DNA of 64,000 nucleotides from Kiritimatiellia bacterium (GCA_045598585.1 JAZLMG010000023.1:6051-70050); one strand, 5' to 3'; shown: positions 32,101 through 50,235, numbered from the stretch's first letter. Program-made: numbers and translations. Notes: generated from the sequence alone by a model not told the origin.

Positions 32101-35100
32101 TCCGCGAAGTATAAGATCAACGTTAAGGAACAGGCGCGTCAGGACGGCTCGGTTCAGTTCGCCGATAGCGAAGGCGATTGCACGTTTGCGATTTATAACC
32201 GCACGCCCCAGCTCACGATTTTGAGCGGCGAAGTTATCTCCGATGACAACAACGTTTCTCTTTCGACGAATGCGATTGTCGTCTCCGTTGGCCAGAAGAT
32301 CAACCTCAAGTGGGGTCTCGTCGATGGTTCCGAGACGAATGTAAACGGTAACTGGGACGGCACGACCGTTACCTGGTATAATGGCGAAACCGGCAAGACG
32401 ATTGTCGATAAAGCTGTCCCGAACGCTGAAGGCGAGGGTGAGCTCTCCGTCGCGTTCAAGTCGCCTACCGCCGAAGGTGTTACCTACTCGCTTCGCGTCA
32501 CTTGGGCCGATAAGGATAAGGCCGGCGCTTCGATGACCTGGAAGATCACGGTCGTCGCCGCAAAGACGATTACCCTCTACCCGATGGGTCCGTCGACCGG
32601 CGTTAACTCCACGGGTCTTAACTACCTCTTCCAGAATGCTCTTGGTCTTGGTGCCGGTAAGGTTGAAGTCTATGAATATGCCAAGAACGAGGTGACCGAG
32701 CCGACGGTCTCTAATCACCGCCAGGAATGGACGCTCCCCGGCAATCCTTCCGCCGTTCAGATTTATGCTGAGGGCTACAAGTGGGCTGACGGCGACAACA
32801 AGGGCTATACCCAGTATGAACAGTTCGGAACTGAAGGCGGCGAAAAGTACACCTATAACTACGCTGATCCGCTTTTGAACCGTGCGCGTGATTCGTTCTT
32901 CTATGGCTGGCTTGAAGCCGCACAGGCTGAGAATTCCTCGGTTTACACGGTTACCCGCGTCGGTATGCCCGCTCCCGGCAAGAGCAACGTCTACGAAGTC
33001 TCGCTTCCTACGACCCGCAATGATGATGGCGCGTTCCCGCGCATCATTTACGAAGCGATCTTCTCGCGCGAATCCCGTGAATCCGATAACTGCGGTGATA
33101 TTAACCAAGATGGCATTCCGGATGCTTATGTGACAAAGTTCAAGTTTGGTGTCATTAACGAGGAGAACGAGCTCGCCGGTACTTCCGTTGATATCGATAC
33201 GAACTTGAAGGACTTCAACGAAGATAACGACTTCCTTCCTAGCGCCTCGAGCCAGGGTGGTATTGTTCCCGGACCTCAGTCCAACTGGGCCAATGAGCAG
33301 CACGCTTTTACCGCTTATCAGGAAATCCGTGGTTTCGGCGATGGTCTCAATAACTTCTACTTTGAGGATAACATGGTCGCGAATGCGTCTCGTGTCGGTC
33401 CTCCCGCTGGCACGGCTCGTGACTTTACCCGCGCTGAAGAAATCGCCTTCCAGTTGGCGACGCGCGAAGCTGAGTCCGCCCTCAGTAATGGTGCTCACTC
33501 GAGCCAGCTTACGAGCTCGGCTACCGATACCGCCGTCTCCGCGATGCAGGAAATCGCGAACGCCTTCGTCGATAAAGAAGACGGCGCGATTAAGGCCTAT
33601 ATCGAGGAGCTTGCTACCGCGTCCGAAATGGACTATGTCTATAGCTATCTTAACAAGCAATATCCGCTTCACGCGCTCAATTCCGCGATGAATCCCGATC
33701 GTACGGCCTACAACGAGTTCCTCGCTGATACCGAGGAGCTTGATAAGAAGAAGGCCGAGGGTCACAACGCTAAGGTTAAGTCGCTTACTTCCTCGCTGAA
33801 GAACTCGATTGCCGAGACGCTTAAGACGGCCTATGAAAACGGCCTAAAGCAGGTGAATAACGACATTTCGACCTACGCTCTTAACCACAAGATTGAGGTT
33901 GAAGGTGTCGAACAGCTCTCGGTTAAAGAAGAGCTTTGGAATCCCGATATCATGGGTGCGAAGTGGGGCAATAAGGGCGGCGACATCGCAGCCGTTACCA
34001 ACAAGTATGTCCTTTGCGTGAAGGAGGGCTTCACCGCGAATGCGACGAAGGTCGTTGAGGATAATGGCGAAACGGCGATTTATATTGCCGTCCGCAGCGC
34101 GCTTGAAAAGATGGCTGAAGAAACCGGTGCTGCTGCTCCTACCGTGTACGATGGAGATATCGAAGTTAATATCGATCTTGAGCAGTTTGCCTCGACGCTC
34201 GACTCGAAGATCAACGTCGATCAGATTGCCGCGACCGCCGAAACGGTTGTCGGTTCGATCTTCCGTTGGACGCCAGAACGTCCTACCGATCCTACCGTTT
34301 CCGATACCGATGGCGACGGAATTCCCGACGGCTATGAATACTGGTACTGGTATCGTGCTCATGTCGGCTGGATGCAGGAATGGTCCTATAATGGTGTAAC
34401 CGTTACGAACTATTGCCGTCTTGGCCTTGATACTCGTGAGTTCGAGTGGACCGAGATGGTTAAGGATGCTGCGGGCAATCTCGTTGAGAAGAAGTTCTCG
34501 AACGATTGGACGAAGCCCGATGGTTGGAGGAATACTCCCGGCAAGCCTATGCCCGGTGACAACCGTTGCAAGAAGTTCGACTACGCCGAACCCTTGTCCT
34601 ACAAGTACATTTCCTCCGCCGAGATCAAGAAGATCTACGACCCGCTCGTTAAATCCGGCATGAACTTCGCGACTGTCGATACCGATAACGACGGTCTTCC
34701 CGACCAGCTCGAACTCGAAATCGGCACCGATCCTTTCAATTGCGATTCCGATGGCGATGACATGATCGATGGTTGGGAACACGCCAATGGTCAGGATCCG
34801 CTTACTTGGAACGATTCGAACGATAAGGACTCGACCTTGCGCAATCGCGACGGCGATATGATGGCGATCGGTAAGATCCACTACCTCGCCTTTACCGCCG
34901 GCGGTAAGAAGCATGTCTGGCTCGTCCCGAATCTTGGTTATACGATAGATGGAAAGGGTCTCGACCTTATCGCGTCCGAGCTTACTCATATCCAGAATGG
35001 TGTCGTTACCCAGCGTGTAACGCTCAAGAACCTTACTACTCCGATTCCCGCTGCCGTCTTCTGCGATGGCGAAGCGGAATATAAGTATCCTACCACGACC

Positions 35101-38100
35101 TTGTTGAGCCACGGTAAGGTTCTCAATGTCGCTCCTGACGCTCTCCGCTCGCGCAAGCTTATTCTTCCTCCCGACGCGACTGATTTCGAGTATGGCGACG
35201 AAATGGTCATCATGCATAGCCAGGTCTATAATTTCTACGGTTTCGACCCGGCTATCGCTTGGTCGCAGAAGTGGGACGGCGCTACCGTCAGCGAGCACTG
35301 CAAAGCGATAATTCGTCGTTTTGACGATGCTTCCGACTATACTTCGATTCCTTACACGGGCTACGATGAGTATGAGCTCGCGTGGTGGAAGCGTTTCTGC
35401 TGCGGTGAAAACGTTTCGAACTTCAATGGCCTCGTTAAGGCGACCACCATTGCCGGTGATATCCGCAATGCAGATGGTGAAGTTACGACTTACGGCGCCG
35501 ATACCGATGGCGACGGCATGCCCGATGGCTGGGAACTCTATGTCGGCCTTAATCCGCGAGATCCCGAGGATGCGAAACGTGGTCAGGATGGCGACGGTCT
35601 CATCAATTCTGCCGAATTCGCCGGTACCGACTCCTGCGCCGCTTACGCGGGCGTTCCTTCAATCGCCTCGAAGCTCGATCGTTCGTGGCCGAACAAGATT
35701 CTTCCTACCGATCCGAACGATGGCGATACCGATGGTGACGGTATTACCGACAGTAACGAAAAATCGTACTTCAATTACGCTTGGCTTGATAAAGACAAAG
35801 ATCATCAGCCTAGTGCCGGAAGCTTCAACTTCATCAGCAATTGCGTCCGAGGCGGTGGCTTGAATCCTTGCTCGGTTGATACTGACCTCGATGGTCTTCC
35901 TGACGGTTGGGAAGTTCAGTACATGGGTCAGACCGTCCAGATGTACACGGAAGGCGCTTACTATCCCTTTGATGAGGAGATCGGTGCCCGCTCCCTTTAC
36001 ACTCCCTATATGGAATCGAAGGAAGCTCAAATCGCTGACGGCTACAAGGGCGATGGTACTTTCACGCTTCCTTTGAACGTTAATGTGATCAAGTTCGTTG
36101 TCATGGGCATGGACGGCACCTTCGCCCAGGATAGCGGCACTCTCGTCGCTCCTGCCGGTGATGCGATTGCCCAAGATCAGCTTACCGATAAGGTTCGTGA
36201 CTATGACTTCGATCATGACGGTCTCGAAAACTATCAGGAATACATGACTCAAACGATTCGTGGCTTCCGCTACGACGATACCGAAACCCCGCTCATGGGC
36301 CATGCGCTTATTTGGAATGGCGATAATGGCGATGCCGCCAATTTGGCGAATGCGACGGATGTCGTGTTGTCGCAGGATGTGGAAGAGCTCGCTCAGGCGC
36401 TTCCCGCGTTCAACTACTCTTCGGCGGAAGACTTCCTCGCTTCGATGACTGTCGAAGATCTTGACCTCGAGGGCAATATCACCACCAAGCCGAGCGAACT
36501 TTATAATGCGATTATGGCCGACGGCGCTAACCGCATGTTTGCTCCTGTCGCCGCGAAGCAGCTTAAGACGCTCTACGCCCGTCACCCGCTCTTCCACAAT
36601 TTCCACTCCGATACGGAGACGTGGTATGTCGATTTGGATGGTGTCCCGACGAATGGTGACGATCTTGATCCTACGATTTACACGAAGATCGAGGCTGAAG
36701 ACGGCTCGAGCTGCAAGTTCACCTACGTTGTCGACGCGATGGTTCCCGGCACTAAGAATACCGTTATCTACACTCCCGGCACCGGTTATGATTACCGTGC
36801 GCTCGGTTACTTCGCCGATGCGAAGCTTGCCAGCGATCCTACGGTCGACCTTGGCTATAAGCACATGTACAAGCCCCAGTCCCAGTCTCATTACATCACC
36901 GAGCTCTCGATGATCAAGAACGTGAGTGACCGCTCGAACGCCGATTGGGATTACTGCGGCTTCGGTCCTAAGCGCACCGCTTCCGATCGCTATATCGGCA
37001 CGAGCCCGCTTGCTCGCGATACCGATGGCGACGGTATGGACGACTACTACGAACTCTTCCACGGCCTCAACCCGCTCTACGGCTCGAGCGACACGATCTC
37101 CGTCGCTTACGGTTCGGCAATTACCGCGAAGGGCTTGAGCAACCTTTGGGTCGGTCTCGTCGGCGAATTCGATGCTCAGATGAACTTGATGCCGAACTAC
37201 CTTACGCTTCCTTGGCTTAACGGTACGACCGGCGCCGACCCCGACGGCGATGGCCTCAGCAACAACGAAGAATCGATCGTTGCTAACTTCACGAGCCCGC
37301 GTCCGTACCATACCGACCCGACGCCTCGTTGGATGACCGACGCTGCCGGTACCTTCTCTTATACCCGTCAGTACTATAAGGATATTACCTCGCTTACCGG
37401 GAAGCTTCCGTGGGTCCGCGTCGAAGATCAGATCGACGAGAAGTACTCGGGTCCTGATCGCTCCGGCGAACGCACGGGCTTCCTCTTCGCGTTCGAAGAG
37501 AACGAAGGTTACGATACCGATGGCGACTGGCGCGGTGACGCCCAGGAACTTATCTCGGGCATTACCTCCGGTTCCGATCCTCAGGACTTCACGAGCCCCG
37601 CGCGTCGCCAGGCGATGTACTTCGACGGCGAACTCGGTTCGGCGATGATGACTCGCTTCGACCAAACCTTTATCTCCTATGACGCTATCGACCAGTTCCG
37701 TCAGTTCACGGTCGAAGCTTGGGTCCGTCCCGACGCTAATGATGTCGAGCAGGTCATTATCGAACGTGACTTCTGGTACGAAGGTTCGACGATGATCAAC
37801 AACGTTGGCCACTATCGCGCCAACTTCCGTCTCGGTATTGCCGCGGATGGCCGCGTCTACGCGCTCTTCGATAACGCGAATCCCGTCGAATCCGCGTCGG
37901 ATCTCGTTAACTCCACCCAGCGCATCTCCGGTGATAAGCTCGAATGCGGCAAGTGGTATCATATCGCCGCGACCTTTGACGGCAAGACGATCCGTCTTAT
38001 GATCAATGGGGTCGCTAAGGCCTGGAGTGAATCGACCTTGATTCCTGCGAACGGCATTACCGACATCAGCTCCGGTCTCGGTACTGACGAGGTGTATCCT

Positions 38101-41100
38101 TCGATGGGTGCGTCTCGTCGTGAAGGCGCCTTCATTATCGGCGCTCACTTGACCGATGCCGCTCACGATAACGTGCCCGCGATGCGCTCGTTTGGCAACG
38201 ACCTCGTCGATTGCTTCTGTGGTTACATCGACGAAGTCCGCGTTTGGGATGGTGCCCGCTCCGTCGCCGAAATCCTCGCCGACCATCAGAAGAGCTACAC
38301 TCGCGCCGATGTCGAAGAAATCCGCGGCACCGTCTACGATGCTTGGGTTGAAAAGTCGACCCGTAATGACAATGTCACGAACTCGATGCTCCCGCCCCAG
38401 CTCATGATCTCCTTGAGCTTCGACACGCTTCCCGCCGCTGACGGTGAAGAGGGTATTTCGACGAGCCCCGTCGGCTTCGAGAACAAGGTCCTCGGTAATA
38501 TTACCTTCAATGGTCAGCCCGTTACCGACGACATGATCGCGATTAACTGGTATAATAAGCTTACGGGTCTCAAGAGCCAGGTCTACACGAATCCTGCGAT
38601 TGTCCCGCGTGCTCGTAATACCGCCGCGCATCTCTCGGCGCTCAATGGTAGCTTCGATGATTCGATGTTCTGGGGCAACAACTTCTCCGGATTCGTACCG
38701 GCTGCCGATCGTAAGCAGTCGAGCTTCGCGATTCCTCAGACGATGAATCCCTATGCCGATAGCTTCATCACTCGTCAGCGCGTCCTCCAGACTTGGAGAA
38801 TGAAGCGTTATTCCAACCAGGCCGGTGACGATTCCGTTGCCAATCTCGTTAAGATGGCTCGTTTCGATAATCGTAGCCGCTTCGATGTCTCGACCGACTT
38901 CTATCCGCTCGGTCATGCTTATGCGAAGACTTGCCCCGACTTCTGGGACAATGCCGGTGCGACCGACAGCTGGCTCGACGCGATGGCTGATACCGACGCC
39001 GATGGTCTCCCCGATTGGTGGGAAATGTATGCGATTGAGAAGTATGGTCTCGATCCCGAAGCCGACATTACCTCGCTTACGCTCATTAATCGCGATGGCG
39101 TCATGATGCTCGCGAAGGACGTTTACCTCCTCGACTATGCGGAGATCTATGGTAATACCTCCACTGCCGATATCAACAAGAACGGCATCCCCGATTGGTG
39201 GGAAGATCTCTACGGCGTCACTGATGCGAATGCCGATGAAGATTCCGATGGTCTCTCGAACTATCAAGAATACTTGATCAGCTATGGTCCGAATGCCTCG
39301 AAGTTCAACCTTAAGCTCGATCCGAAGAATGCCTTCTCTAATCCAAATTTTGCGGTCACTGACTATTTCGCTGAAGGCCCGACCGAGGATGTTGGTATCG
39401 ATGGCAAGCATATCTTCGCTAATGAGTACATCGGCGAGATCATGACCGACCACGACTTCGTTGAAGATTGGTGGGAAAATAAGTATGGTAACGGTTATTC
39501 CAGCGCGAGCATTTACGATCCTTATCTCGATCGTGACGGTGATGGCTGGGATAATTACTCCGAAGTCCGCTCTGCTCTTTGGGGTGGTCTTGTCGCCTCC
39601 AGCTTGATTGACAAGTCGCTTGATAATCACAACTTGGTTACTTGCTATCCCGAGCCGCAGATCGGCCTCCGCGTCACCTACTTTGGCGACAAGGATATTA
39701 CCGGTAAGCCGCTTGTGGCCCGCGCGACGAGTACTCAGACAAAGCGTGTTGATGCCGTTTATAATGTACGTGGGGCAGCTGCATCGGACAATGCTATCGA
39801 ACGTAGCTACTATTTGGCCGGCTCAATGTACGATGAAAACAGCATAATTCGTGGCTCGCTCCATCCCGGCTCTATTCTTCCCGGTGATGCTCGCTTTGAA
39901 TACGTTACTCTATCGGGCGAAAGTTCCTTCGCGTGGATTGTTTGGGAGGATATTGACCACAAGAATGTCCATCATTATGGTTCAGGAACCTTCGATGACT
40001 ACCGTGATGCTGTAAGACGTTATGGACGTCGTCGCGTTGAGCTTCTTGATAGTGTGATCGATTGGCAGCCGCTTGCGAACACCATTTCGGATGGTGAAGG
40101 CGTTGCCGGCAAGATTCTCTGTATTGCCGATAGTGTTAATGGAGCTCCCTTTATTGGTGAGATTAACTTCAATACCGGTGACTTTGAAGTTAATTGCGCG
40201 AAACTCGTTTCGGCAGGTTTTGCAATCAATGATGTACTCCTTCGTGTTAACTACTCCTATAAGATTGGTTACAACTGGCCTCAGACAATTTACTTGAGCG
40301 AGGCTGAGACGGGCCGTATCCTTCAGGGTAAGAATTTCATCGAAGTCTTCATTGATATTGATGAAAATGGAGAGCGTTCCGAAGGCGAACCTTACGCCAT
40401 CGTCAAGAACGTTGAAGTCGGTTGGCACAAGGTCCCGACGATTACCGTCGAACTTAAGGACGGGAACACTGAGTTTGGTATTGAGCGTACGGTCGCGACC
40501 TCGATCTCCCCGATTCACTCCGCACCGGTTTACTCCGCCGCGCCGACCTTCACCTGGTCGACGACGAACGATAACTCGACTGAGTTCGCTGTCCGCATTC
40601 TCGATTCCGAAGGTAAGGTCGTCTTCACCGGCGAACGCCAACGTATTACCGGTCGCGACTCGACGACCGTCGGTGGCTACACTTATAGATATACGGCTCC
40701 CGCTTATGTTGGCGAGGCGCTGAAGGATGGTGAAACCTACACATGGCAGGTTATTGTCGGTAACGCAAAGTTCCCGGTCGACGAAGTTACTATGACGAAC
40801 GATGACTTCTGGTCAATCCCGGCCGAATTCCAGATGGACGTCGCTAACGCCAATCGTTATCCCGGCATCCCGACCGGCCATAAGAGTGCCGAAATTACGG
40901 TTCGTTACTTCGGTCCCGTCGCGAGCGAAGTTACGGCTGATGAAGTTATCGTCGAAGCGTATGAGACGGCCGACTTTACGGGTCAGCCGATGGCGCGTAT
41001 GCCGCTCACCGTTGCCTCGAAGCTCTCGAGCCGCGATGACGTTTCGACCGCTGATGTGACGCTCATCGGTCTCGACAACAAGCCCGTCTACGTGATGGCC

Positions 41101-44100
41101 TATATCGACCGCAATGGCAACGGTAAGCACGATAAGTTCGAACCTTGGGGCTATGTTAACCAGCTCAACATGGGTCTTAAGGCGATCTATCAGCCCAAGG
41201 CGGTTGGGGAAACCGGCTCGATCATCTTCATCGAAGATACTGATGTCAATCAGAACGAGATCCCGGATATCAAGGAATTCGATCTCTTCTCGGCTGAAGA
41301 TGACTCCGATGACATCAGCAGCGACGACTCCGATGGCGATTCGATTCCGGATGAAGCGGAATTGATTATGGGCTCCGATCCGTTCACCGCCGACGCTGAT
41401 GTTGCCGGCGATGGTGATGTGATGGCATACGCCGAGATGCTTTGCGATGTCGCGCTCTTCTCGAATGGTAAGAGCTATGCGATCAATCCCAAGACCAAGG
41501 AGCTCTATACGACCTTCACCTTCGGCGGCAAGATGATTGTCGGCCGTAAGCTCGAGGGTGCTAATGTCGCCGATGCCGTTTCGATTTCGCGTCGCGTTGT
41601 GACGCTTATCCACGGTGCGGTTTGTGATTTCCTCGGCTATGATGATACGACCGCTCGTGCGACGACTTCGATCGGCGAGGATGGCAAGGTTGTCGTTTCA
41701 TTCGGCAAGGATACGATAGCGTTCTCCAATTACTGGAAGTACATCACGAACGAGAAGTATCTCCCCGAATTCGGCGACTACTCCTATCCCGTTTGCTCGA
41801 ACTATGTCGACTCTAACGCCAACGGCATCGACGACGGCTGGGAGCTTTACTTCGGCTTCTCGAATGCGTTGTCCGCCCATCAGTTCCCAATCGGAGCCAA
41901 CAACATTCGCATTGCCGAGATCGTTTACAACCACAAGATGAGCGAGGCCTCGTCCGCGAGCGACGTGATGGCTTACGCCGAAGTTACCGCGAAGATCGCG
42001 GTTGTTGGCAGCGAGAAGTATGTCCTCGTCTATAATAACGACGGCTCGATTCGCACCTTCCTCCGCACGGCTGAAGTTCCCGGCGCGCAGCACCTCGTTG
42101 CCTACGGTCCGGAAACCGCCGTTCAGCTTAAGGATGTCGTCGTCGATATCGAATCCGGCGAAGTTCTTAGCGAAAACTACCGCGGCGACACCTATGTCTA
42201 CGAAGATACGGTCATCCTTATCCACGGCGCCGTCTTGCAGTACTTCGGCTTCAACGGCTCGACTGCCCGCGTCAACGCGCTCTCGACCCACGACGAAGAA
42301 GAGGGCGGTGAAGAAGGTGGTGAAGAAGGCGATGCTGTCGTAACTCCGACCCTTCCCTCGTTCGGTGGTGCTAACACTGTTCCCTTCACGTACTACTGGA
42401 AGTATGTGACGAGAGAGATGCTCGGCCTCACTCTTGCGGATGGCTCGGAGCTTATCTACGACGCGCTCGACTCGCAGCCGAATGGCATCACGGATGGCTG
42501 GGAACTCTACACGGGTAGCGACGATCCGTTCGCCTTCGCGAATGGCTATGATCCCTACAGCGGCGATGCCGATATGGATGGTATCCCGAATGATTGGGAA
42601 ATCGCCCACGGCATGAATCCCGGCAGTATGTTCGATGGCCTCTTCGCCACGAACGACGATGACGTGATGGCCTACGCGGAAGTCGAGATGACGCTCGTCA
42701 CGAATTCCGAAAGCGGCGAGATCTTCGCGACCTTCGGTAAGCCTCAGGTTGGTGACCTCTTCAAGGACGGCAAGTACTATGCTACCTACCGCTATGGCGC
42801 CTCGCTCTTCTCGACGGTGAACTATGGTATCGGTGCAGAAGTTGATCCCGAAATCTATGGTGAGGCGAGAATCGACCAGGTCGTCGAAACTACGGTTGCC
42901 TTAATTCATAACCAGGTTAAGGAATACTTCGGTTTCGATCCCAAGACGGCGAATGCAGCGGTTCCTGAAGCTGAGCGCGTTAATACGAAGGAATTCACGC
43001 CCTTCGACAAGTACATCACGTTCGTTTACGCTCACGCCTGCAAGTTCCTTGATTTCGACAACTACGACCTCGATCCGTTCTCGGTTGATACCGATATGGA
43101 TGGTCTCCCGGATGGTTGGGAACTCTATGTCGGTACGAAGGCCAACACCTTCGACCGCGACGAAGACCTTGATGGCGATGGTCTCTCGAACCTCGAGGAA
43201 TACAACAAGGGTGATAAGCCGCTCGATCCGACCTCCGGTTCGACCCTCGGCGAGCTTACCGACGATATCGTCGCGAAGTTCGGCCTCAAGACCGAAGCCG
43301 ACCGCTTGAGCGATCCTGATATGGATGGTCTTACCAACTATCAGGAATATCTCGCTTATCTCGCGGGCTATGGTGACTTCGACATCACGAAGGCCGACTC
43401 CGATGAGGATGGTGTCCTCGATTACTTCGAAAAGGTCACCTTCAACGGTAAGGATACCTACGTCGGCTTTGCGGTCTCCGACCACGATATGATGCTCGAC
43501 ACGACGGAAGCTGACTACGATCCGACCTATGTCACTACCGCCAAGTATGACCCGAAGGGCGATGTCGATAAGGATGGTTGGTCGAACTACGCGGAAATGA
43601 CCGCCGGCACCGACCCGACCCGCCTTATCACGAAGGGTATCGACGGCTACACCTTGACCGAGCACCCGGTTCCGCACCTCCCGCTCGAGCTCATCAGCGA
43701 AGATGAGATCAAGGCCTCCGACCGTATCTTCATCACCGCTACTCAGAACGGTAAGACCACCGCGAAGTGGGAAATCGGCAAGGGTGAAGAACGCGAAGCC
43801 GGTGAAGTTACGACCACGGCTCGTCAGTACTCAATGTATGTCGGTATGAATCCCGGCGTTAAGAAGACCTTCCGTCTCTCGCCCGGCAACCTCGATCCTC
43901 GCCGCTTCCGCATCCGTGCAATCCCGACCTTGTGGGAATTGACCGGTAAGAAGAAGAAAGACGACGATTCTTATGAGTATAAGTATGCTCACCGCGATAT
44001 TGACTCCGCGACTTGGGCTGAAATCGCTCAGGACGTCACCCATAACGACGATCCTCACACGGGCTACATCCGTCTCGGTGTCGGAACGACGAACATCGGT

Positions 44101-47100
44101 TCGATCAACTATGTGACCGGCGAAGTTACGATTGATTTCGAGTCCTTCTTCGATGGCTCTATGGTCTGGCAGACCGATATGTCGCGCACAGGCCGCGAAT
44201 GGAACCCGGGCGACGGCTACCAGATCTCGTCCGAATACTACTTCGACCAGGCCTACTTCGTCCTTGAATGGGACGCGACGCCTGAATTCGGCGGCTCGAA
44301 GTCGATCTATCGTCTCAACGACGCGAACGAGGGATTCCTCCGCGAAGGTAAGGCCGACTTCACCGTCTTCGTCGACCAGAACGGTAACGGCGAATACGAC
44401 GAGGGCGAACCTCGCGGCACTCAGCACGATGTTGAAATCGGCTGGGATGTTGTCCGCGGCGTCAAGATCAACCTCGCGAAGTCGACGACCGACCTCTCCA
44501 ACGCGAAGCTCGAACTCATCGCCCCGACGGCTGCGGCCGACGCGGTCGTGACGACCGGCTCGCCGATCTTCCGCTTCAAGTCGCTCGATGGCTACGCCTC
44601 CTACGCTTACACGGTTAAGAAGGGCGACGAAATCATCGAAGAGGGCACGAAGCTCATTAATGGTTCTGCCGCGTTCGAACAGAACTTCCGCTTGACGAAG
44701 CCGCTCTCCGAAGCGGGCGAATACACCTGGTCGGTCATGATCGGTAAGACCACGGCTACCGCCTCGTTTGTCCTTGCCGAGGTCGCCGATTGCACCGAAT
44801 GCGGTTCGATCGAAGTCTCGACGAAGTACTTCGGTCCGAAGTCCGGTAAGACGATCGTCCGCGTCTATGACTCGGCCGACTTTACGGGCACCGTTGTTGG
44901 CGAAGCGACTGCCGACTCTGCGAACTCGATCGTCAAGATCGATCGCATCCCCGCGGGTGACCACTATGTCGTCGCCTTCATCGACGATAACTTGAGCGGC
45001 GAGCGCAACGCTTACGAAAGCTGGGGCTATGTCAACTATCTCGGCGAGAACTCACTCATGACCTTTGTTCCGAAGGCCGTCACGGTCGAAAAGGCGAAGA
45101 CAGCCGCCGCGGTTCTCTACATCGAAGATAGCGATCTTAACAATAACGGCATTGCCGATTCGCTCGAAGATCCGTCGCAGTTCGTGATGTATGACGAGGT
45201 TGAAGAACCCGCCGATACCGATGGCGACGGCATCCCGGACGCATGGGAGAACGAGCAGGGTCTCGACTCCGAAGACGCCTCCGACGCCGCTTCTGCGGTT
45301 GAGGGCGATGTGATGGCCTATATCGAAGTTCCGATGTACCTCGTTACGACCGAGAAGGGTACTTACTTGACCGACAAGAAGCTTATCGTCGGCGATGATG
45401 TCAATCGTATTGCCGGTACGACCTTCTACAGCGTCTATAAGTATGGCTCGCTCAGCAATAGCCCGTATGGTCGCGGTGCTGCGGTGGCGGCCGAAGGTAC
45501 GATCTCGAAGATCGAACCTGTCACGGTCGCCCTCGTCCACAAGCAGGTCTACGATAAGTACGGCTTCAACTCGAAGACGGCGAATCCCTCGATTCCCGCG
45601 AGCGAGCTCGTCAACTCGAAGCCCTTCACGGCTCTCGATAAGTACCTCGCTTCCGCCTATGCGAAGGCCAATGGTTTTGAGGTCTCGCTCCGTGCGGGTG
45701 AAGCTGATGTCGATCTCGATGGTATCCCGGATGGTTGGGAACTCTATGTCGGCCTTAACCCGAACTCCTTCGAAGATCGTCTCTCCGATGGCGACGGTGA
45801 CGGCCTCGCGGCTATCGACGAATATAACGGCGGTAACGTTACCGACCCGAATAACGATCATACTCTCGATCCCGGCATTTCCGATAACTTCGTGATGCTC
45901 TACAACCTCACGAAGGCGAGCGCCGATGACGATGGTGACGGTCTTTCGAACTACGCCGAATACTTGATTACCGAAGTCTTCCGCTTTAAGGAGCTTAATC
46001 CGAAGAATGCCGACTCCGACGGTGACGGCGTCTCCGACTACTTCGAAAAGGTCGGTAACTTCTACCTCGGTGAAGTCTTCGCTGACCACGACCAGATCGA
46101 CGATCAGTGGGAACTTGCTCACGCGACGCTCCCGGGCGCCGATAAGATCTTCGCCAACAGCTCGATCTTCGATCCTACTCGCGATGAAGATAACGATGGT
46201 TGGTCGAACTACGCTGAATTCAAGGCGGGCACCGATCCTCGTGGCGAGTTCACTATCGGCCTTGACAACTACACCGTTGCCGAGTATCCGATTCCGCTCG
46301 TGAAGCTCGATGTTCTTGATAATGTGAAGTCGACCAAGGTCGGCGCGCTCAAGATCGTCGCTTGGAACGATGAAAAGGATCCCAACATGACCGGCGTTCC
46401 GGACGCGATCTGGACGATCGGCTCCGGCTCCGAATCCTCGGGCTCCGGCACTGCCGGCTCGACCGGCGCTCAGACGCTTAACGAATCCTCGCGTTATATC
46501 GGTCAGATTCCTATGGGCGGTATCAAGAGCTTCTACATCGGACCCGGCTCCGTCGCGCCTACCTCGATCGAGATTCAGTTCAACGATCCTGCCGCGATCA
46601 AGAACTTCAGCGAAACCTCCGCTGATGACGAGAAGGTCAACGAGAGCGAAACGCTCGATGCTACGTTCGGTTGGTTCGTGGCGATCAAGGATAACGGTCT
46701 CGGCGATTTGATCCTCGGCGGTACGAACGGTCGTGCGGTCGGTAAGATCGACTACTCGACCGGTTACATGATGATCGACTTCGGCGATCCTACCTTCGAT
46801 ATCCGCCTCGTGGGTAACGAGTACAATCCTTCGTCGACGGATACGACGGTCACGCCGATCAATCCTCGTAACTGCCACGCTCTCGTCAGTTGGAAGGCGA
46901 CGAAGCTCTCGAACTCCGTCTCGGGAACTTATTACCTCGCTGATCCCGACAAGGTCGTTGATGGCAATAGCCGCGGCCGTCTCCGTGAAGGCAAGAACAC
47001 GTTCATGGTCTTTGTCGATACCGAGGCCGGCTCGTCTGAAGGTGATGACACCTTCGGCGACAAGATCGGCTTCACCGTCGGCGAGCCCATGGGCATCGTC

Positions 47101-49080
47101 CGTGGCGTTGATGTCGGCTGGGCCGGCGCTTCCCTTAAGGTCGAACTCACTCGTACGAGCCCGATCTTCGAGCGTATCGATATCTTGAACTCGACCTCCG
47201 ACCGCATCGCGGTTCTCTACCCGAACGCGGCGACCGCCGGCTCTTCGAGCTCGACTACGACGACCGAGTCGGAAGATGGTGATGAAACCACGTCCGCTAT
47301 CGGCTCGTCCTCCTCGAGAAAGATCAAGGATTCGCTCGATAAGATCGGTGAGGAAGTGACCGTCCAGATCTACGTCAAGAGCTACGACACGATCGATGGT
47401 GTCCATACGCTCAATCCGGGCGCGCTCGAGACCAAGCATCACGTCATTTCTGAGACGAATCCTTACCGCATTATCCGTTCGATCCGCATGAACCTCCCTG
47501 TCCGTGGCTTCATCACGGAAGCGGATGTCCTTAACGCGGGTGAATATGATGTCGCTTGGAATGTCTTTAAGAACTTGAAGGAAAATACCGGTCATAACAT
47601 CACGTTCATGAACCTCGGTCTCCAGCTCGTTCTCGATAGCCAGGAAACGCTTGACCTCGGATACGATATCGTTCGCTACTTCGATCAGGCCAATGTCCGG
47701 CTTACGCCGAGCAACCTCTCGGTCACCGATGGCGTGGTTTACGGAGCTCGTCCGACCTTCAATTGGGAAATGCCCGAAACGGCCGATACGAATATGCCGT
47801 TCAATACCTATCCCGCCTTCTTGATCGAGATTGCGGAGGTTAACGGCACCACGACCAATAAGGTCTACGATACCGGCATCAAGTCGCTCACCGTCTTCAA
47901 TGAAGGTAAGTACTCGTGGAAGGCCGACTTCTCGGTTGGTGATCAGCTCCTCTATCGTGATGAGGATGACGTCGATTGCGGCTTCGTCTTGAAGCACAAT
48001 GCCAACTATGTCTGGCGTATCGCGATGCTTAATACGAAGTTCAACATCGCCTTCAATAATGAGGACTTCTCGAAGTACGCTCCTCTCGTCACGGCGGTCA
48101 ACGCCGTCCAGGCGATGAACGACCACAACTACGGCTCGATTAAGGTCGATGTCGCTTACGCGGGTTACTCGAAGGTACTCGCCAAGGTTGCCGAGACGGG
48201 CAGCGAGGCGACTGAACTCGCGGGGCAGATCCGTGTCCAGGCCTTCACAGGCGCCGACTTCGCGGGAACTCCCGTTGCGGAATCGATCGCGACCAAGAAC
48301 GCCGACGGTACGATTACCGCGACCCTCCGTGGCCTCGTCATGGGTGGTACCTACTATGTCCGCGCGTACATCGATCAGGATGGCGATCATACGAAGAGCG
48401 CTTGGGAATCGTGGGGTGTCGCGTCCGATGACATCACGCTCTCGGGCAACCTCGTTCCTGAAATCTCGCTCTTCCTTGAAGATTGCGATGTTGATCAGGA
48501 TTGGCTCCCCGACGCTTGGGAATACGAGAATGCTCGTGACTCGAAGACGGGTAAGGTTCCTGCGAACTTCCTCGCCGTCGAAACCGCCGCGGTTGTCGGA
48601 GATGATAAGGTTGCGCTTAAGAAGGATATCTATGAGAGATTCGCCGCGCGTCTCGCCGCGTTCTCGAATGGTCTCCCCGGCGCTTCGCTTACCACCTTTG
48701 AGAATGCGACGTTCGCCGCGAACCTCCTCGGTGTTGCGAAGAACGATCTCGTCACCGGCAAGCTTCCTTACGAAATCGCCGATGGCTCCGTTAAGATCAT
48801 CGACTTCAAGCTCTCCGCGACCAAGGTTTCGCTTACCTTCGGCGCCGAAGTCTTGACGACGGTCGATCCTACCGCGAAGCACCTCTATGATCTCGCGACC
48901 GATGCCAAGGTTACTGTTAAGATTTTGAAGAAGACCAACTTGACTGACGCGACTTGGACGACCGTCACTACCAAGACCGGTGTGTCGATCGGCGCTGATG
49001 GTACGACCGTCGACGTCAACCTCGGAACGACGCTCAATCTCTCGAGTGGCTTCTTCACGATTGAACTCATCAAGGAATAA
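29116..49080 (+). CDS. giant secreted, repeat-rich, probable Ca-binding surface protein (6,654 aa) with TSP type-3-like repeats, a LamG domain and DUF2141-like modules
   Basis: One uninterrupted 19,965-nt ORF. Signal peptide …MMKKFLSLIAAFTLSTLAASAADVW. N-terminal ~1,700 aa are Ig-like, beta-rich sequence. From nt 34303 onward there are more than 25 D-x-D-x-DG-x-x-D-x-x-E motifs (DTDGDGIPDGYE, DSDGDGVSDYFE, DEDNDGWSNYAEF…). LamG-like domain at ~37600-38275 (AMYFDG…FTVEAWVRP…WYHIAATFDG…IDEVRVWDGARS). Three DUF2141-like ends (YVMAYIDRNGNGKHDKFEPWGYVN and paralogues). Confidence 0.93.
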   Translation: MKAGNNMMKKFLSLIAAFTLSTLAASAADVWKMYTIQDRYNPTTPKKYTAATPVVPGNTVTFAVEILNKGSAYNTTKDDGALPTTLGTPWGFVNSGTGFDAAYPTISVSVGGRRDEASIVGVYTSASAGYATALVCEYVVKPGDLARPLKIWNNEFIVTPTIGGTTIGIKNSDGTISTPQWGDGWVAPVKTASQGAKIETSESYNSEERLNKTLAGSNIYVEGVRFATSAPESNSAPGTWLSVRANSTELFGGEAAIEVTGVSTSNGASTLYIWSGNEDVIDIVGDSNVLKLVEIDPNAEVIYNPSDNLADKKTANVYQLVFAQGSCRFKLHAKDGTYDANNRKSAKIYVSTMPGMVLNNATTIINDFIEATVDVIAPSKPSVWVRLDGAYERAVVIGSASQPKMTLSLSGRSFNETVKVDLKVTYNGIEEDATTPEFIVLGTESVKETRNNILSYEFDPGETEKEIHYFLRGVPAGGSFLITPICNKVATIDCHEAHMVVMPNPAITKVEAKGFQSGRAGKVTVTITDSERNFTLADDYKVEWFLNTADDTPATVKSVTFADGKFTLTGIEYKLPGNYTSRVAVTTPDGVTVSTDVEVIVKELTVAKLVRADGTALKEAVGEDGAEYKIVLEPNPGHEGDLYAYIVATDDAGEKLIKTTDQALPYAMTDRAGLDVTSGATEPFMINFNDNGVVSVTVVLSTSAYYDDTTDETYGLSTAKLNVKNIAAVVGKFRVQPHGKTTWSSASAKSVAGKEYAYEATYTGTLKSEEEYKLQASITDVTNDLGSDVIVEWRVLDADGNQTAIFYTKTKPTSGWVSCPEIPELTWEGKHFVEVRALDKDQIAALVVGNEAVEALNDDANYTDGLFNETFGPGDTPLFEDFGTNVVATRLALTVTNKPGMTVALDRFAYPSEDGTYLGWLEGAEEHEVTITLDQNVTGVKESKFDVTILTIDDKVPAITDLAISGSAVNNKTTVTIAANKKTASFKLVTKDGNNSAKYKINVKEQARQDGSVQFADSEGDCTFAIYNRTPQLTILSGEVISDDNNVSLSTNAIVVSVGQKINLKWGLVDGSETNVNGNWDGTTVTWYNGETGKTIVDKAVPNAEGEGELSVAFKSPTAEGVTYSLRVTWADKDKAGASMTWKITVVAAKTITLYPMGPSTGVNSTGLNYLFQNALGLGAGKVEVYEYAKNEVTEPTVSNHRQEWTLPGNPSAVQIYAEGYKWADGDNKGYTQYEQFGTEGGEKYTYNYADPLLNRARDSFFYGWLEAAQAENSSVYTVTRVGMPAPGKSNVYEVSLPTTRNDDGAFPRIIYEAIFSRESRESDNCGDINQDGIPDAYVTKFKFGVINEENELAGTSVDIDTNLKDFNEDNDFLPSASSQGGIVPGPQSNWANEQHAFTAYQEIRGFGDGLNNFYFEDNMVANASRVGPPAGTARDFTRAEEIAFQLATREAESALSNGAHSSQLTSSATDTAVSAMQEIANAFVDKEDGAIKAYIEELATASEMDYVYSYLNKQYPLHALNSAMNPDRTAYNEFLADTEELDKKKAEGHNAKVKSLTSSLKNSIAETLKTAYENGLKQVNNDISTYALNHKIEVEGVEQLSVKEELWNPDIMGAKWGNKGGDIAAVTNKYVLCVKEGFTANATKVVEDNGETAIYIAVRSALEKMAEETGAAAPTVYDGDIEVNIDLEQFASTLDSKINVDQIAATAETVVGSIFRWTPERPTDPTVSDTDGDGIPDGYEYWYWYRAHVGWMQEWSYNGVTVTNYCRLGLDTREFEWTEMVKDAAGNLVEKKFSNDWTKPDGWRNTPGKPMPGDNRCKKFDYAEPLSYKYISSAEIKKIYDPLVKSGMNFATVDTDNDGLPDQLELEIGTDPFNCDSDGDDMIDGWEHANGQDPLTWNDSNDKDSTLRNRDGDMMAIGKIHYLAFTAGGKKHVWLVPNLGYTIDGKGLDLIASELTHIQNGVVTQRVTLKNLTTPIPAAVFCDGEAEYKYPTTTLLSHGKVLNVAPDALRSRKLILPPDATDFEYGDEMVIMHSQVYNFYGFDPAIAWSQKWDGATVSEHCKAIIRRFDDASDYTSIPYTGYDEYELAWWKRFCCGENVSNFNGLVKATTIAGDIRNADGEVTTYGADTDGDGMPDGWELYVGLNPRDPEDAKRGQDGDGLINSAEFAGTDSCAAYAGVPSIASKLDRSWPNKILPTDPNDGDTDGDGITDSNEKSYFNYAWLDKDKDHQPSAGSFNFISNCVRGGGLNPCSVDTDLDGLPDGWEVQYMGQTVQMYTEGAYYPFDEEIGARSLYTPYMESKEAQIADGYKGDGTFTLPLNVNVIKFVVMGMDGTFAQDSGTLVAPAGDAIAQDQLTDKVRDYDFDHDGLENYQEYMTQTIRGFRYDDTETPLMGHALIWNGDNGDAANLANATDVVLSQDVEELAQALPAFNYSSAEDFLASMTVEDLDLEGNITTKPSELYNAIMADGANRMFAPVAAKQLKTLYARHPLFHNFHSDTETWYVDLDGVPTNGDDLDPTIYTKIEAEDGSSCKFTYVVDAMVPGTKNTVIYTPGTGYDYRALGYFADAKLASDPTVDLGYKHMYKPQSQSHYITELSMIKNVSDRSNADWDYCGFGPKRTASDRYIGTSPLARDTDGDGMDDYYELFHGLNPLYGSSDTISVAYGSAITAKGLSNLWVGLVGEFDAQMNLMPNYLTLPWLNGTTGADPDGDGLSNNEESIVANFTSPRPYHTDPTPRWMTDAAGTFSYTRQYYKDITSLTGKLPWVRVEDQIDEKYSGPDRSGERTGFLFAFEENEGYDTDGDWRGDAQELISGITSGSDPQDFTSPARRQAMYFDGELGSAMMTRFDQTFISYDAIDQFRQFTVEAWVRPDANDVEQVIIERDFWYEGSTMINNVGHYRANFRLGIAADGRVYALFDNANPVESASDLVNSTQRISGDKLECGKWYHIAATFDGKTIRLMINGVAKAWSESTLIPANGITDISSGLGTDEVYPSMGASRREGAFIIGAHLTDAAHDNVPAMRSFGNDLVDCFCGYIDEVRVWDGARSVAEILADHQKSYTRADVEEIRGTVYDAWVEKSTRNDNVTNSMLPPQLMISLSFDTLPAADGEEGISTSPVGFENKVLGNITFNGQPVTDDMIAINWYNKLTGLKSQVYTNPAIVPRARNTAAHLSALNGSFDDSMFWGNNFSGFVPAADRKQSSFAIPQTMNPYADSFITRQRVLQTWRMKRYSNQAGDDSVANLVKMARFDNRSRFDVSTDFYPLGHAYAKTCPDFWDNAGATDSWLDAMADTDADGLPDWWEMYAIEKYGLDPEADITSLTLINRDGVMMLAKDVYLLDYAEIYGNTSTADINKNGIPDWWEDLYGVTDANADEDSDGLSNYQEYLISYGPNASKFNLKLDPKNAFSNPNFAVTDYFAEGPTEDVGIDGKHIFANEYIGEIMTDHDFVEDWWENKYGNGYSSASIYDPYLDRDGDGWDNYSEVRSALWGGLVASSLIDKSLDNHNLVTCYPEPQIGLRVTYFGDKDITGKPLVARATSTQTKRVDAVYNVRGAAASDNAIERSYYLAGSMYDENSIIRGSLHPGSILPGDARFEYVTLSGESSFAWIVWEDIDHKNVHHYGSGTFDDYRDAVRRYGRRRVELLDSVIDWQPLANTISDGEGVAGKILCIADSVNGAPFIGEINFNTGDFEVNCAKLVSAGFAINDVLLRVNYSYKIGYNWPQTIYLSEAETGRILQGKNFIEVFIDIDENGERSEGEPYAIVKNVEVGWHKVPTITVELKDGNTEFGIERTVATSISPIHSAPVYSAAPTFTWSTTNDNSTEFAVRILDSEGKVVFTGERQRITGRDSTTVGGYTYRYTAPAYVGEALKDGETYTWQVIVGNAKFPVDEVTMTNDDFWSIPAEFQMDVANANRYPGIPTGHKSAEITVRYFGPVASEVTADEVIVEAYETADFTGQPMARMPLTVASKLSSRDDVSTADVTLIGLDNKPVYVMAYIDRNGNGKHDKFEPWGYVNQLNMGLKAIYQPKAVGETGSIIFIEDTDVNQNEIPDIKEFDLFSAEDDSDDISSDDSDGDSIPDEAELIMGSDPFTADADVAGDGDVMAYAEMLCDVALFSNGKSYAINPKTKELYTTFTFGGKMIVGRKLEGANVADAVSISRRVVTLIHGAVCDFLGYDDTTARATTSIGEDGKVVVSFGKDTIAFSNYWKYITNEKYLPEFGDYSYPVCSNYVDSNANGIDDGWELYFGFSNALSAHQFPIGANNIRIAEIVYNHKMSEASSASDVMAYAEVTAKIAVVGSEKYVLVYNNDGSIRTFLRTAEVPGAQHLVAYGPETAVQLKDVVVDIESGEVLSENYRGDTYVYEDTVILIHGAVLQYFGFNGSTARVNALSTHDEEEGGEEGGEEGDAVVTPTLPSFGGANTVPFTYYWKYVTREMLGLTLADGSELIYDALDSQPNGITDGWELYTGSDDPFAFANGYDPYSGDADMDGIPNDWEIAHGMNPGSMFDGLFATNDDDVMAYAEVEMTLVTNSESGEIFATFGKPQVGDLFKDGKYYATYRYGASLFSTVNYGIGAEVDPEIYGEARIDQVVETTVALIHNQVKEYFGFDPKTANAAVPEAERVNTKEFTPFDKYITFVYAHACKFLDFDNYDLDPFSVDTDMDGLPDGWELYVGTKANTFDRDEDLDGDGLSNLEEYNKGDKPLDPTSGSTLGELTDDIVAKFGLKTEADRLSDPDMDGLTNYQEYLAYLAGYGDFDITKADSDEDGVLDYFEKVTFNGKDTYVGFAVSDHDMMLDTTEADYDPTYVTTAKYDPKGDVDKDGWSNYAEMTAGTDPTRLITKGIDGYTLTEHPVPHLPLELISEDEIKASDRIFITATQNGKTTAKWEIGKGEEREAGEVTTTARQYSMYVGMNPGVKKTFRLSPGNLDPRRFRIRAIPTLWELTGKKKKDDDSYEYKYAHRDIDSATWAEIAQDVTHNDDPHTGYIRLGVGTTNIGSINYVTGEVTIDFESFFDGSMVWQTDMSRTGREWNPGDGYQISSEYYFDQAYFVLEWDATPEFGGSKSIYRLNDANEGFLREGKADFTVFVDQNGNGEYDEGEPRGTQHDVEIGWDVVRGVKINLAKSTTDLSNAKLELIAPTAAADAVVTTGSPIFRFKSLDGYASYAYTVKKGDEIIEEGTKLINGSAAFEQNFRLTKPLSEAGEYTWSVMIGKTTATASFVLAEVADCTECGSIEVSTKYFGPKSGKTIVRVYDSADFTGTVVGEATADSANSIVKIDRIPAGDHYVVAFIDDNLSGERNAYESWGYVNYLGENSLMTFVPKAVTVEKAKTAAAVLYIEDSDLNNNGIADSLEDPSQFVMYDEVEEPADTDGDGIPDAWENEQGLDSEDASDAASAVEGDVMAYIEVPMYLVTTEKGTYLTDKKLIVGDDVNRIAGTTFYSVYKYGSLSNSPYGRGAAVAAEGTISKIEPVTVALVHKQVYDKYGFNSKTANPSIPASELVNSKPFTALDKYLASAYAKANGFEVSLRAGEADVDLDGIPDGWELYVGLNPNSFEDRLSDGDGDGLAAIDEYNGGNVTDPNNDHTLDPGISDNFVMLYNLTKASADDDGDGLSNYAEYLITEVFRFKELNPKNADSDGDGVSDYFEKVGNFYLGEVFADHDQIDDQWELAHATLPGADKIFANSSIFDPTRDEDNDGWSNYAEFKAGTDPRGEFTIGLDNYTVAEYPIPLVKLDVLDNVKSTKVGALKIVAWNDEKDPNMTGVPDAIWTIGSGSESSGSGTAGSTGAQTLNESSRYIGQIPMGGIKSFYIGPGSVAPTSIEIQFNDPAAIKNFSETSADDEKVNESETLDATFGWFVAIKDNGLGDLILGGTNGRAVGKIDYSTGYMMIDFGDPTFDIRLVGNEYNPSSTDTTVTPINPRNCHALVSWKATKLSNSVSGTYYLADPDKVVDGNSRGRLREGKNTFMVFVDTEAGSSEGDDTFGDKIGFTVGEPMGIVRGVDVGWAGASLKVELTRTSPIFERIDILNSTSDRIAVLYPNAATAGSSSSTTTTESEDGDETTSAIGSSSSRKIKDSLDKIGEEVTVQIYVKSYDTIDGVHTLNPGALETKHHVISETNPYRIIRSIRMNLPVRGFITEADVLNAGEYDVAWNVFKNLKENTGHNITFMNLGLQLVLDSQETLDLGYDIVRYFDQANVRLTPSNLSVTDGVVYGARPTFNWEMPETADTNMPFNTYPAFLIEIAEVNGTTTNKVYDTGIKSLTVFNEGKYSWKADFSVGDQLLYRDEDDVDCGFVLKHNANYVWRIAMLNTKFNIAFNNEDFSKYAPLVTAVNAVQAMNDHNYGSIKVDVAYAGYSKVLAKVAETGSEATELAGQIRVQAFTGADFAGTPVAESIATKNADGTITATLRGLVMGGTYYVRAYIDQDGDHTKSAWESWGVASDDITLSGNLVPEISLFLEDCDVDQDWLPDAWEYENARDSKTGKVPANFLAVETAAVVGDDKVALKKDIYERFAARLAAFSNGLPGASLTTFENATFAANLLGVAKNDLVTGKLPYEIADGSVKIIDFKLSATKVSLTFGAEVLTTVDPTAKHLYDLATDAKVTVKILKKTNLTDATWTTVTTKTGVSIGADGTTVDVNLGTTLNLSSGFFTIELIKE
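39531..48420 (+). repeat. three divergent protein-level supermodules within the giant gene (A 39531-41160, B 43561-45040, C 46183-48420)
   Basis: Each starts D(x)DGW(S/D)NY(A/S)E. Each contains a (F)VD…NG(E)…EGEP…VE(I/V)GW element and a (S/A/R)P(I/T)F(R/T/N)(F/W) domain start. Each then has …(Y/V)(F/A)G(P/Y)… leading into a DUF2141-like …A(Y/F)ID…(E/F)(S/P)WG(Y/V). The DNA copies are strongly diverged. Confidence 0.7.
41416..43134 (+). repeat. three tandem copies of an unrecognised ~150-185-aa 'DVMAYAE…LIHxxV…(F/L)G(F/Y)(D/N)…DGWELY' module
   Basis: Copies at 41416-41856, 41962-42516 and 42661-43134. A fourth lies at 45307-45752. A divergent fifth lies at ~34846-35548 (DGDMMAIGKIHY…VIMHSQVYNFYGFDP…PDGWELYVG). 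Confidence 0.7.
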
Positions 49081-49100
49081 TCAAGAGGTTTGTGTATAAA

Positions 49101-50234: not shown

Positions 50235-50235
50235 A

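Follow-up and report, generated by a model that had tools for sequence, protein, structure and literature searches.

A repeated, previously unnamed alpha/beta module in a giant and probably Ca2+-binding surface protein of a Kiritimatiellia bacterium

Introduction

Giant Ca2+-dependent adhesins of Gram-negative bacteria of the RTX/BIg type, such as MpIBP, LapA and SiiE, are chains of thousands of residues in which Ca2+-binding repeats stiffen the polypeptide and globular ligand-binding domains are interspersed along it. A related layout is described here for a 64,000-nucleotide stretch of DNA from a Kiritimatiellia bacterium (GCA_045598585.1, JAZLMG010000023.1:6051-70050; the whole stretch is called the window), where one giant open reading frame (ORF) carries five copies, M1 to M5, of a module that an initial annotation of the sequence had picked out as a repeat of no recognised family. 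Like the RTX/BIg adhesins, the encoded protein is a large secreted Ca2+-repeat chain with globular, probably binding domains (here LamG); it differs from them in using TSP3 as the calcium element, in carrying a Sec signal, and in having the new module as its repeated globular unit.

Autocatalytic modules of surface proteins, namely the FrpC-type self-processing, Thr-Gln ester, Lys-Asn isopeptide and Hint/intein domains, offer a further comparison. They resemble the module in size (about 130-180 aa), in their place within large secreted proteins and in their conserved His, Asp and Thr, and the FrpC module additionally adjoins Ca2+-binding repeats, as the module does here. The differences are that the module has no match in the PDB, does not keep the Gln in one of its subtypes (C, defined below), has no N-terminal Asp-Pro or Cys/Ser nucleophile, and carries an invariant Ala at position 11.

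With respect to the repeats themselves, the closest TSP3-rich systems include the OmpA-family TSP3 proteins, as well as the TSP3-rich surface proteins CglD and MtsD of Myxococcus, which give weak NCBIfam hits on the TSP3 tail only. The likeness lies in the DGWELY end of each segment, which is a TSP3-type DxDxDGxxDxxE repeat, whereas the module core (DVMAY...LVHxQV...FGFD..TA...F.T..DKY) is globular alpha/beta and not a calcium-wire repeat. TSP3 repeats of bacteria and animals bind Ca2+ according to Kvansakul 2004 and Dai 2017, as cited in bioRxiv 10.1101/2023.11.21.568195. The same preprint (West-Roberts et al.) describes the extracellular 'dockerin-type' giant proteins of Omnitrophota, which are rich in bacterial TSP3 repeats and for which attachment is proposed; degradation of cell-surface polymers is likewise proposed for giant proteins of the Planctomycetes-Verrucomicrobia-Chlamydiae (PVC) group (bioRxiv 10.1101/2023.11.21.568195; PMC12057145). 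The Omnitrophota giants are thus also extracellular, TSP3-rich giant proteins of the PVC group. They differ in belonging to another phylum, in exceeding 30,000 aa and in carrying dockerin and discoidin domains, which are absent here, and the module is unmentioned in that account (bioRxiv 10.1101/2023.11.21.568195).

Results

Five copies of a real domain

The module is a real and previously unnamed protein domain, with a core of about 130-190 aa and five copies in the giant protein (Table 1). The initial annotation had proposed four clear copies and a divergent fifth at about 34846-35548. All five segments have both coordinates in frame 0 of the giant ORF; they start with DVMAYAE or DVMAYIE at aa 4101, 4283, 4516 and 5398 and with RDGDMMAIGK at aa 1911, end without exception in ...DGWELYxG, and share 17 invariant columns when aligned. 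In pairwise Smith-Waterman comparisons, made with the TSP3 tail removed and with 200 shuffles as the null, the four clear copies score 5-33 standard deviations above the shuffled sequences, while the fifth, M5, is marginal (z = 1.7-6.4).

An independent hidden Markov model (HMM) was built from 97 module instances of other organisms, excluding the window sequences and their closest orthologue to avoid circularity. Searched against the six-frame translation of the window, it finds exactly five places. M1, M2, M3 and M4 are matched over their full length (62.8, 61.2, 115.9 and 122.8 bits), and M5 is recovered at 22.4 bits with an envelope of 1910-2092, mostly through its C-terminal half (aa 2027-2086); the top score among 50 shuffled versions of the giant protein is 0.5 bits. 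The four clear copies are therefore borne out by frame, by shuffling and by the independent HMM, and the fifth by the HMM despite its marginal pairwise scores. The ordered landmarks ascribed to all copies are statistically supported as well, and correspond to the conserved columns of a 102-instance alignment.

The copies agree at 40-55% of DNA positions and at 32-42% of third-codon positions, a divergence that makes the duplications old. This agrees with the earlier view of an ancient and maintained duplication, as does the persistence of the subtypes across species described below. A 7,025-nt contig from a separate public run, colinear with positions 40900-45812 at about 93% identity, shows that the module arrangement is not an assembly artefact.

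Predicted fold and conserved residues

According to the AlphaFold2 model of M3, the module is an autonomous, confidently foldable alpha/beta unit with six strands, two longer helices and a one-turn helix. The model, of the kind that the initial annotation had suggested making for one module, was computed from a 55-sequence alignment and is confident (mean predicted local distance difference test score, pLDDT, 86.5; predicted template modelling score, pTM, 0.79); an earlier run with the five window copies alone reached a pLDDT of 51.6 and was excluded from the fold search. Strands are predicted at 9-22 (DVMAYAEV...), 28-31, 46-51 and 62-68, followed by the one-turn helix 70-73 and a long strand, 77-89, which ends V-A-L-V/I directly before His90. 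Helix 91-97 (xQVYxxF) then leads into the loop G98-F-D/N-P-x-T103-A104-N, after which come a variable insert, the strand 116-118 (T-K-x) and the last helix, 121-133 (A-L-D-K-Y-L-V...). The two longer helices carry the LIHxxV...FGFD and F.T..DKY landmarks. Loops 23-27, 32-45, 53-61, 69-76 and 106-114 vary widely in length in the alignment; in M2, an acidic Glu/Gly-rich insertion occupies loop 106-114, after the FGF..TA motif. The middle part, described earlier as variable and beta-like, does contain strands and variable loops, but the predicted fold as a whole is alpha/beta, with helices.

In the 102-instance alignment, H90 and V93 are 100% conserved, closely followed by A11 and F/Y99 (99% each), G98 (98%), M10 and T103 (96% each), A104, G65 and T120 (94% each), and D8 and F119 (93% each). 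T116 is kept in 89% of instances (Ser in a further 11%), D123 in 86%, Y125 in 82%, Y12 and K124 in 81% each and Q92 in 80%; further conserved columns are G38, Y52, G53, Y94, N115 and K117. The FGF(D/N)P element is less constant, with D100 at 51% and P101 at 60%. Structural explanations are plausible for several of the conserved polar residues, judging from the model: T120-x-x-D123 at the N-terminus of a helix appears to resemble a capping box, and four conserved Gly are located at turns in the model and alignment. If the two long strands, 1 and 5, pair in antiparallel fashion, D8 and H90 would lie next to each other.

The terminal DGWELY element was earlier described as merging into a TSP3-like repeat. 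It is indeed an ordinary TSP3_bac repeat by sequence, and as such a separate unit that does not belong to the new domain: among 55 module instances, each with a C-terminal tail of at most 25 residues, TSP3_bac matched a single one (1/55, E = 0.006).

No match among known families and folds

The module matches no known family or solved fold among Pfam, NCBIfam, PDB and BFVD, and the predicted fold appears new; the initial statement that no family could be assigned is thereby upheld at both the sequence and the structure level. A Pfam scan of the whole giant protein places no family over the module. Across the 55 single instances, Pfam returns five unrelated families, each for 1/55 (best E = 0.0011), and no family recurs at E <= 0.1. 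NCBIfam gives three unrelated single hits among module members (E >= 0.004) and nothing significant for the five window copies. Against PDB sequences, a 5-sequence profile reaches at best E = 0.86, to an EF-hand protein over 30 residues, and the 55-sequence profile yields zero matches at E <= 10. With Foldseek E <= 0.001 or template modelling score (TM) >= 0.5 taken as fold similarity, the M3 model has no neighbour at E <= 0.001 in the PDB (best E = 0.69, query TM <= 0.23) or in BFVD (best E = 0.21, TM <= 0.23). The faint PDB matches (E >= 0.69, probability <= 0.15, target-normalised TM 0.14-0.36) are mostly to small beta-barrels, among them SmF, the KorB C-terminal domain, SAWADEE, SSB and inteins; the N-terminal half may thus be a small bent-strand barrel, which is only a lead. 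The literature search turned up broader treatments of giant proteins in the PVC group and of TSP3 repeats, and nothing on the module.

Specific candidate identities are not supported when judged by their hallmarks. Hint/intein domains have an N-terminal Cys/Ser/Thr nucleophile, a TxxH block, a C-terminal His-Asn and an all-beta horseshoe fold; the module starts D-V-M-A-Y with an invariant Ala, contains helices, and gives intein matches with probability <= 0.15 and TM <= 0.25. Ester and isopeptide adhesin domains are Ig-like beta-sandwiches with an invariant Thr/Gln or Lys/Asn pair and a catalytic His/Asp/Glu, whereas the module matches no Ig-like fold, and subtype C, with M1 and M2 among its members, has Ala in place of Q92. 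In the FrpC-type Ca2+-dependent self-processing module, a structure of which is deposited in the PDB, the scissile Asp-Pro stands at the N-terminus; here the start is G-D-V-M-A-Y, the internal (D/N)100-P101 is poorly conserved, and there is no PDB match. RTX/BIg giant adhesins, finally, are marked by RTX nonapeptide repeats, BIg extender repeats and a C-terminal type 1 secretion signal. The giant protein does not fit this class either, as Pfam finds only Laminin_G_3 and TSP3_bac in it and its signal peptide is N-terminal and of Sec type.

Subtypes and copy-number variation

The copies fall into three subtypes: A, comprising M3 and M4 (signature H-x-Q, TAN, DKY); B, represented by M5 (TAW, DEY); and C, comprising M1 and M2 (H-x-A, NT[VI]xF, WKY). 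Mean identity is 0.35-0.41 within subtypes versus 0.24-0.31 between them, and every window copy resembles foreign members of its subtype more than it resembles the other subtypes' copies in the window; M5, for instance, groups with foreign copies such as those near aa 1330-1650 in their host proteins. It follows that the subtypes are ancient and that each has been maintained on its own. Judged on sequence, minority residues at conserved columns are subtype marks and not noise, and they include differences at conserved polar positions (Q92A, D123W, K124E and N105W).

Most of the giant protein can be aligned with its 37 homologues of 5,000 aa or more. M3 and M4 align in essentially all of them and M1 and M2 in 8-69%. 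Homologues carry one to five module copies. In a related strain (public run X4, about 92% nucleotide identity), window positions 41326-41952 (627 nt, M1 plus linker) are replaced by 84 nt; the difference is in frame, and its 181 codons match M1 and its linker in length. This loss of M1 shows that tandem copy number varies even between strains.

Distribution

By the available sequences, the module so far seems confined to giant proteins secreted by Kiritimatiellia-type (PVC) bacteria of the rumen and gut. When 1.84 billion representative proteins were searched exhaustively in HMMER with a profile of the five core copies, a close equivalent of the profile search that the initial annotation had proposed, only 100 carriers were found at E <= 1e-3, of which 52 reach E <= 1e-10, and nothing that speaks against the domain. 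Most carriers are 5,000-7,800 aa long and hold the module at conserved positions, with a divergent copy around aa 1,600-2,100 and a further one to four between about aa 3,800 and 6,000. Of the short carriers, those inspected (155-959 aa) resemble fragments of giant genes on broken contigs rather than standalone versions. A word-indexed homology search gave 0 matches with the five-copy core profile and two short fragments with the 55-sequence profile, its index evidently missing giant proteins.

Scanning one genome per GTDB species with a tighter 8-sequence alignment located 35 loci with the module. Those with labels are from Kiritimatiellia or 'Verrucomicrobia' metagenome-assembled genomes, mostly of rumen, yak, cattle or other gut origin, except for two bins labelled Anaerovoracaceae and Lentisphaeraceae. 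No GTDB representative has a module match better than 43% identity, which means that the window's own species is missing from that set. Window DNA is detected in gut and faecal metagenomes, and a search of RNA runs with the window returned a single run of unclassified type. The eight closest homologues looked up are named in no source, and each occurs on one or two contigs.

A different setting is seen in a second, paralogous family of large proteins of about 3,400-4,900 aa with PKD, TSP3 and LamG domains, exemplified by P0063 (4,741 aa) at locus L038 (10001-24226). Here the module is present once, in a subtype-B-like form near aa 1,330-1,520, and the neighbourhood differs, with an M4 peptidase/MAM protein and an FGE-sulfatase protein alongside.

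Layout of the giant protein

The five copies lie in a protein whose signal peptide and domain content suggest an extracellular, modular chain (Table 1). Laminin_G_3 and TSP3_bac (PF18884) are the sole Pfam families found in the whole protein; TSP3_bac, whose Pfam HMM is 22 residues long, reaches 45.7 and 48.8 bits where the cut-off is 25. The strict DxDxDGxxDxxE pattern occurs 27 times. In every copy, 0-36 residues separate the module from the next TSP3-type motif, which is degenerate after M2, and upstream of the copies stand TSP3 repeats or acidic D/G-rich linkers.

Table 1. Features of the giant gene and its upstream neighbour (window coordinates)
Feature	Position (nt)	Strand	Residues (aa)	Remarks
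Lipoprotein-like ORF	28714..29100	+	128 aa in length	lipobox LVVGC; charged helical C-terminal part; directly upstream of giant gene
Giant ORF	29116..49080	+	6,654 aa in length	uninterrupted; contains all five module copies
Sec-type signal peptide	29116..29199	+	1-28	MKAGNNMMKKFLSLIAAFTLSTLAASAA
Module copy M5, core	34843..35415	+	1910-2100	subtype B (TAW / DEY); divergent fifth copy of the initial annotation
TSP3_bac-type repeat after M5	35500..35565	+		DTDGDGMPDGWELYVGLNPRDP; strict motif
Laminin_G_3 (concanavalin-like lectin) domain	37696..38028	+	2861-2971	Pfam PF13385, E = 1.5e-15
Module copy M1, core	41404..41823	+	4097-4236	subtype C (H-x-A, NT[VI]xF, WKY)
TSP3-type repeat after M1	41809..41874	+		DSNANGIDDGWELYFGFSNALS; strict motif
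Module copy M2, core	41950..42459	+	4279-4448	subtype C
Degenerate TSP3-like repeat after M2	42469..42534	+		DSQPNGITDGWELYTGSDDPFA; Q at position 3, fails the strict pattern
Superrepeat B	42649..45294	+	4512-5393	M3 at its head
Module copy M3, core	42649..43059	+	4512-4648	subtype A; sequence used for the AlphaFold2 model
TSP3_bac-type repeat after M3	43087..43152	+		DTDMDGLPDGWELYVGTKANTF; strict motif
Superrepeat C	45295..48555	+	5394-about 6480	M4 at its head
Module copy M4, core	45295..45687	+	5394-5524	subtype A
TSP3_bac-type repeat after M4	45706..45771	+		DVDLDGIPDGWELYVGLNPNSF; strict motif

Comparison of the giant protein with itself in chunked queries reveals a superrepeat of about 880-1,090 aa, of which the subtype A copies are the first element. 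Specifically, aa 4516-5400 match aa 5398-6480 end to end (E down to 6e-39), with a weaker relation to aa 3290-4100, and M3 and M4 are 45% identical over 189 aa (E = 6e-39). Each unit runs through the module, a TSP3 cluster, a beta-rich region, a '...VRYFGP...AYID.N.NG....E.WGY' domain and further TSP3. The parts other than TSP3 have no Pfam match, and a search of PDB sequences with the remainder of superrepeat B (aa 4649-5393) came back empty; further unnamed domains remain within the superrepeat.

Along the chain, aa 400-1000, 1450-1700 and 2400-2600 align in at most 5% of the 37 large homologues, and aa 2650-4100 are alignable in nearly all of them. The hypervariable regions might be species-specific, possibly ligand-facing parts. 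Very long antisense ORFs of up to 1,323 aa also lie inside the giant gene (35659-39630 and 45052-48882 on the minus strand, and others). Pfam gives no credible hit for the tested ones over modules, nor does Rfam match anything in the window; the module signal is accordingly that of the plus-strand protein, and the antisense ORFs are most likely shadow ORFs arising from the codon composition of the plus-strand gene.

Genomic neighbourhood

The lipoprotein-like ORF upstream of the giant gene has homologues at the same position in loci L001 (48% identity, E = 7e-40) and L037 (30%, E = 1e-10), and from sequence it looks like a conserved partner gene. Its only Pfam hit, Ntox28 (E = 0.0065), is below the cut-off and probably noise. 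Further upstream, a three-gene apparent operon (17023-28498, plus strand) with overlapping stops and starts encodes a secreted protein of 863 aa, a prepilin-type protein of 280 aa (N_methyl, MKKAFTLIELLIV) and a secreted protein of 2,681 aa. The 863-aa and 2,681-aa proteins, both with signal peptides, have no Pfam match, and the independent HMM finds no module in either.

On the 3' side (49092-60388, plus strand), the giant gene is followed by ackA, pta, a SIS/CBS isomerase-like gene, PilM, an unknown gene, a TSP3 protein and a secretin. The secretin, of 1,164 aa, has a long N-terminal region rich in Glu, Ala and Asp. The same order is found 3' of the homologous giant gene in L037 (24738-34682), with the addition of an Amuc_1102-family gene; the window ORF at that position (52314-53030) has no Pfam hit. 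This shared order marks the giant gene as a conserved chromosomal gene. A functional link to the pilus/secretin cluster is only possible, because housekeeping genes intervene. At the other side of the window, dnaN, dnaA and mnmG lie together at 6830-11581 (minus strand) and GC content falls to 39-44% at 8-12 kb; the window probably adjoins the chromosomal replication origin.

Discussion

The module is a sound domain family, of the kind catalogued as domains of unknown function, within a known kind of protein, the giant Ca2+-binding bacterial surface protein. With somewhat better than even confidence, we favour for it the role of a non-catalytic folded node, most likely a binding unit, in a Sec-exported giant surface fibre stiffened by Ca2+. 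After export through Sec, the host protein would form a long fibre, either displayed or released, in which the TSP3 repeats would bind Ca2+ and stiffen the linkers, with the modules as non-catalytic folded nodes between them. The modules would act as adhesin or lectin-like binding units beside the LamG lectin-like domain; a conserved pole would be made up of D8, M10 and A11, where strand 1 begins, and of H90, where strand 5 ends, and the variable loops would tune function or merely tolerate change. The signal peptide, TSP3_bac, Laminin_G_3 and the 27 strict motifs point to an extracellular, Ca2+-binding context. A bead-like role is also consistent with the variation from one to five copies, the patchy presence of M1 and M2 in homologues and the exact loss of one module in X4.

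Several observations weigh against this proposal. We infer the binding role only from context. The modules are 35-47% identical in homologues, no higher than their flanks, so that nothing singles them out as the business end of the fibre. Together, the invariant His and an Asp and Thr that rarely vary could just as well point to a catalytic or autocatalytic site, and the proximity of D8 and H90, like the placing of the loops, is deduced from strand order in the model, not measured.

Among the alternatives, a very divergent member of a known superfamily, for example an SH3/Sm/OB-like beta-barrel with a helical extension or a carbohydrate-binding module, is unlikely, although it would explain why the faint Foldseek matches are enriched in small beta-barrels, and remote similarity can escape Foldseek's prefilter. 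All these matches stay at E >= 0.69, probability <= 0.15 and query-normalised TM <= 0.23, and neither a PDB match of the 55-sequence profile, even at E <= 10, nor a recurring Pfam family supports such a relationship. Slightly less credit is given to an inert folded bead that binds no ligand and merely sets length or geometry between TSP3 linkers. Variable copy number between strains and species, conservation no higher than that of the flanks, and conserved residues that are mostly hydrophobic, Gly or helix-capping all suit such a spacer; three subtypes that keep their signatures and fixed positions across species argue instead for roles that are not interchangeable, and an invariant His with a near-invariant Asp at a probable common pole would be unusual for it.

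Chemistry within the chain is a further option, in which an Asp-His-Thr(/Gln) site would form an ester or isopeptide cross-link that strengthens the fibre mechanically, or make a Ca2+-dependent cut at module boundaries; RTX self-processing modules and the GDPH-type Asp-Pro cleavage of mucins are functional analogues. This is improbable, more so than either a divergent known fold or a spacer. The conservation of H90 (100%), D8 (93%), T103 (96%), T116 (89%, with Ser in 11%), T120 (94%) and Q92 (80%) is in keeping with such a site, D8 and H90 would sit at the same end if the long strands of the model pair antiparallel, the module always adjoins Ca2+-binding repeats, and an FGF(D/N)P element is present. 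Yet Q92 is Ala throughout subtype C, M1 and M2 included, while H90 stays invariant; D100 and P101 reach only 51% and 60%, with no Asp-Pro at the module N-terminus; PDB sequences and folds give no match, the best intein hits having probability <= 0.15 and TM <= 0.25; and helix capping would account for T120-x-x-D123. In its boldest form, which is more doubtful again, the module would be a new autocatalytic fold with an Asp8-His90-Thr pole, activated once the flanking TSP3 repeats bind Ca2+ outside the cell, that hardens the fibre by an internal covalent cross-link or cuts the 6,654-aa precursor at superrepeat heads into pieces that act separately. If true, this would amount to a device for self-processing or self-stapling with no relation to inteins, SEA/GPS, FrpC self-processing modules and the Gram-positive ester/isopeptide domains. 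The least probable of the alternatives is a true enzyme, such as a hydrolase or lyase of glycans or cell walls with His at the centre of its active site, whose repetition would serve polymeric substrates. The invariant His, several conserved polar residues and the proposed role of giant PVC proteins as degraders of cell-surface polymers (bioRxiv 10.1101/2023.11.21.568195; PMC12057145) lend it some support, against which stand the small core (about 130 aa) with highly variable loops, the subtype differences at conserved polar positions (Q92A, D123W, K124E, N105W), the lack of a match to any enzyme family or fold in Pfam, PDB or Foldseek searches, and the rarity with which enzymatic domains are repeated two to five times per chain.

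A confidently predicted fold with no solved neighbour makes the module a candidate for structure determination, and D8 and H90 are clear residues to mutate. Were it to act autocatalytically, it would be a new device of protein chemistry; as a spacer, it would be an ordinary lineage-specific domain of unknown function. If it binds host or dietary glycans, it would represent a new binding-module family relevant to attachment in the gut. Kiritimatiellia are common yet poorly studied members of rumen and gut communities, and their largest genes are entirely unannotated; the module HMM provides a usable signature for the giant surface protein family of this lineage.

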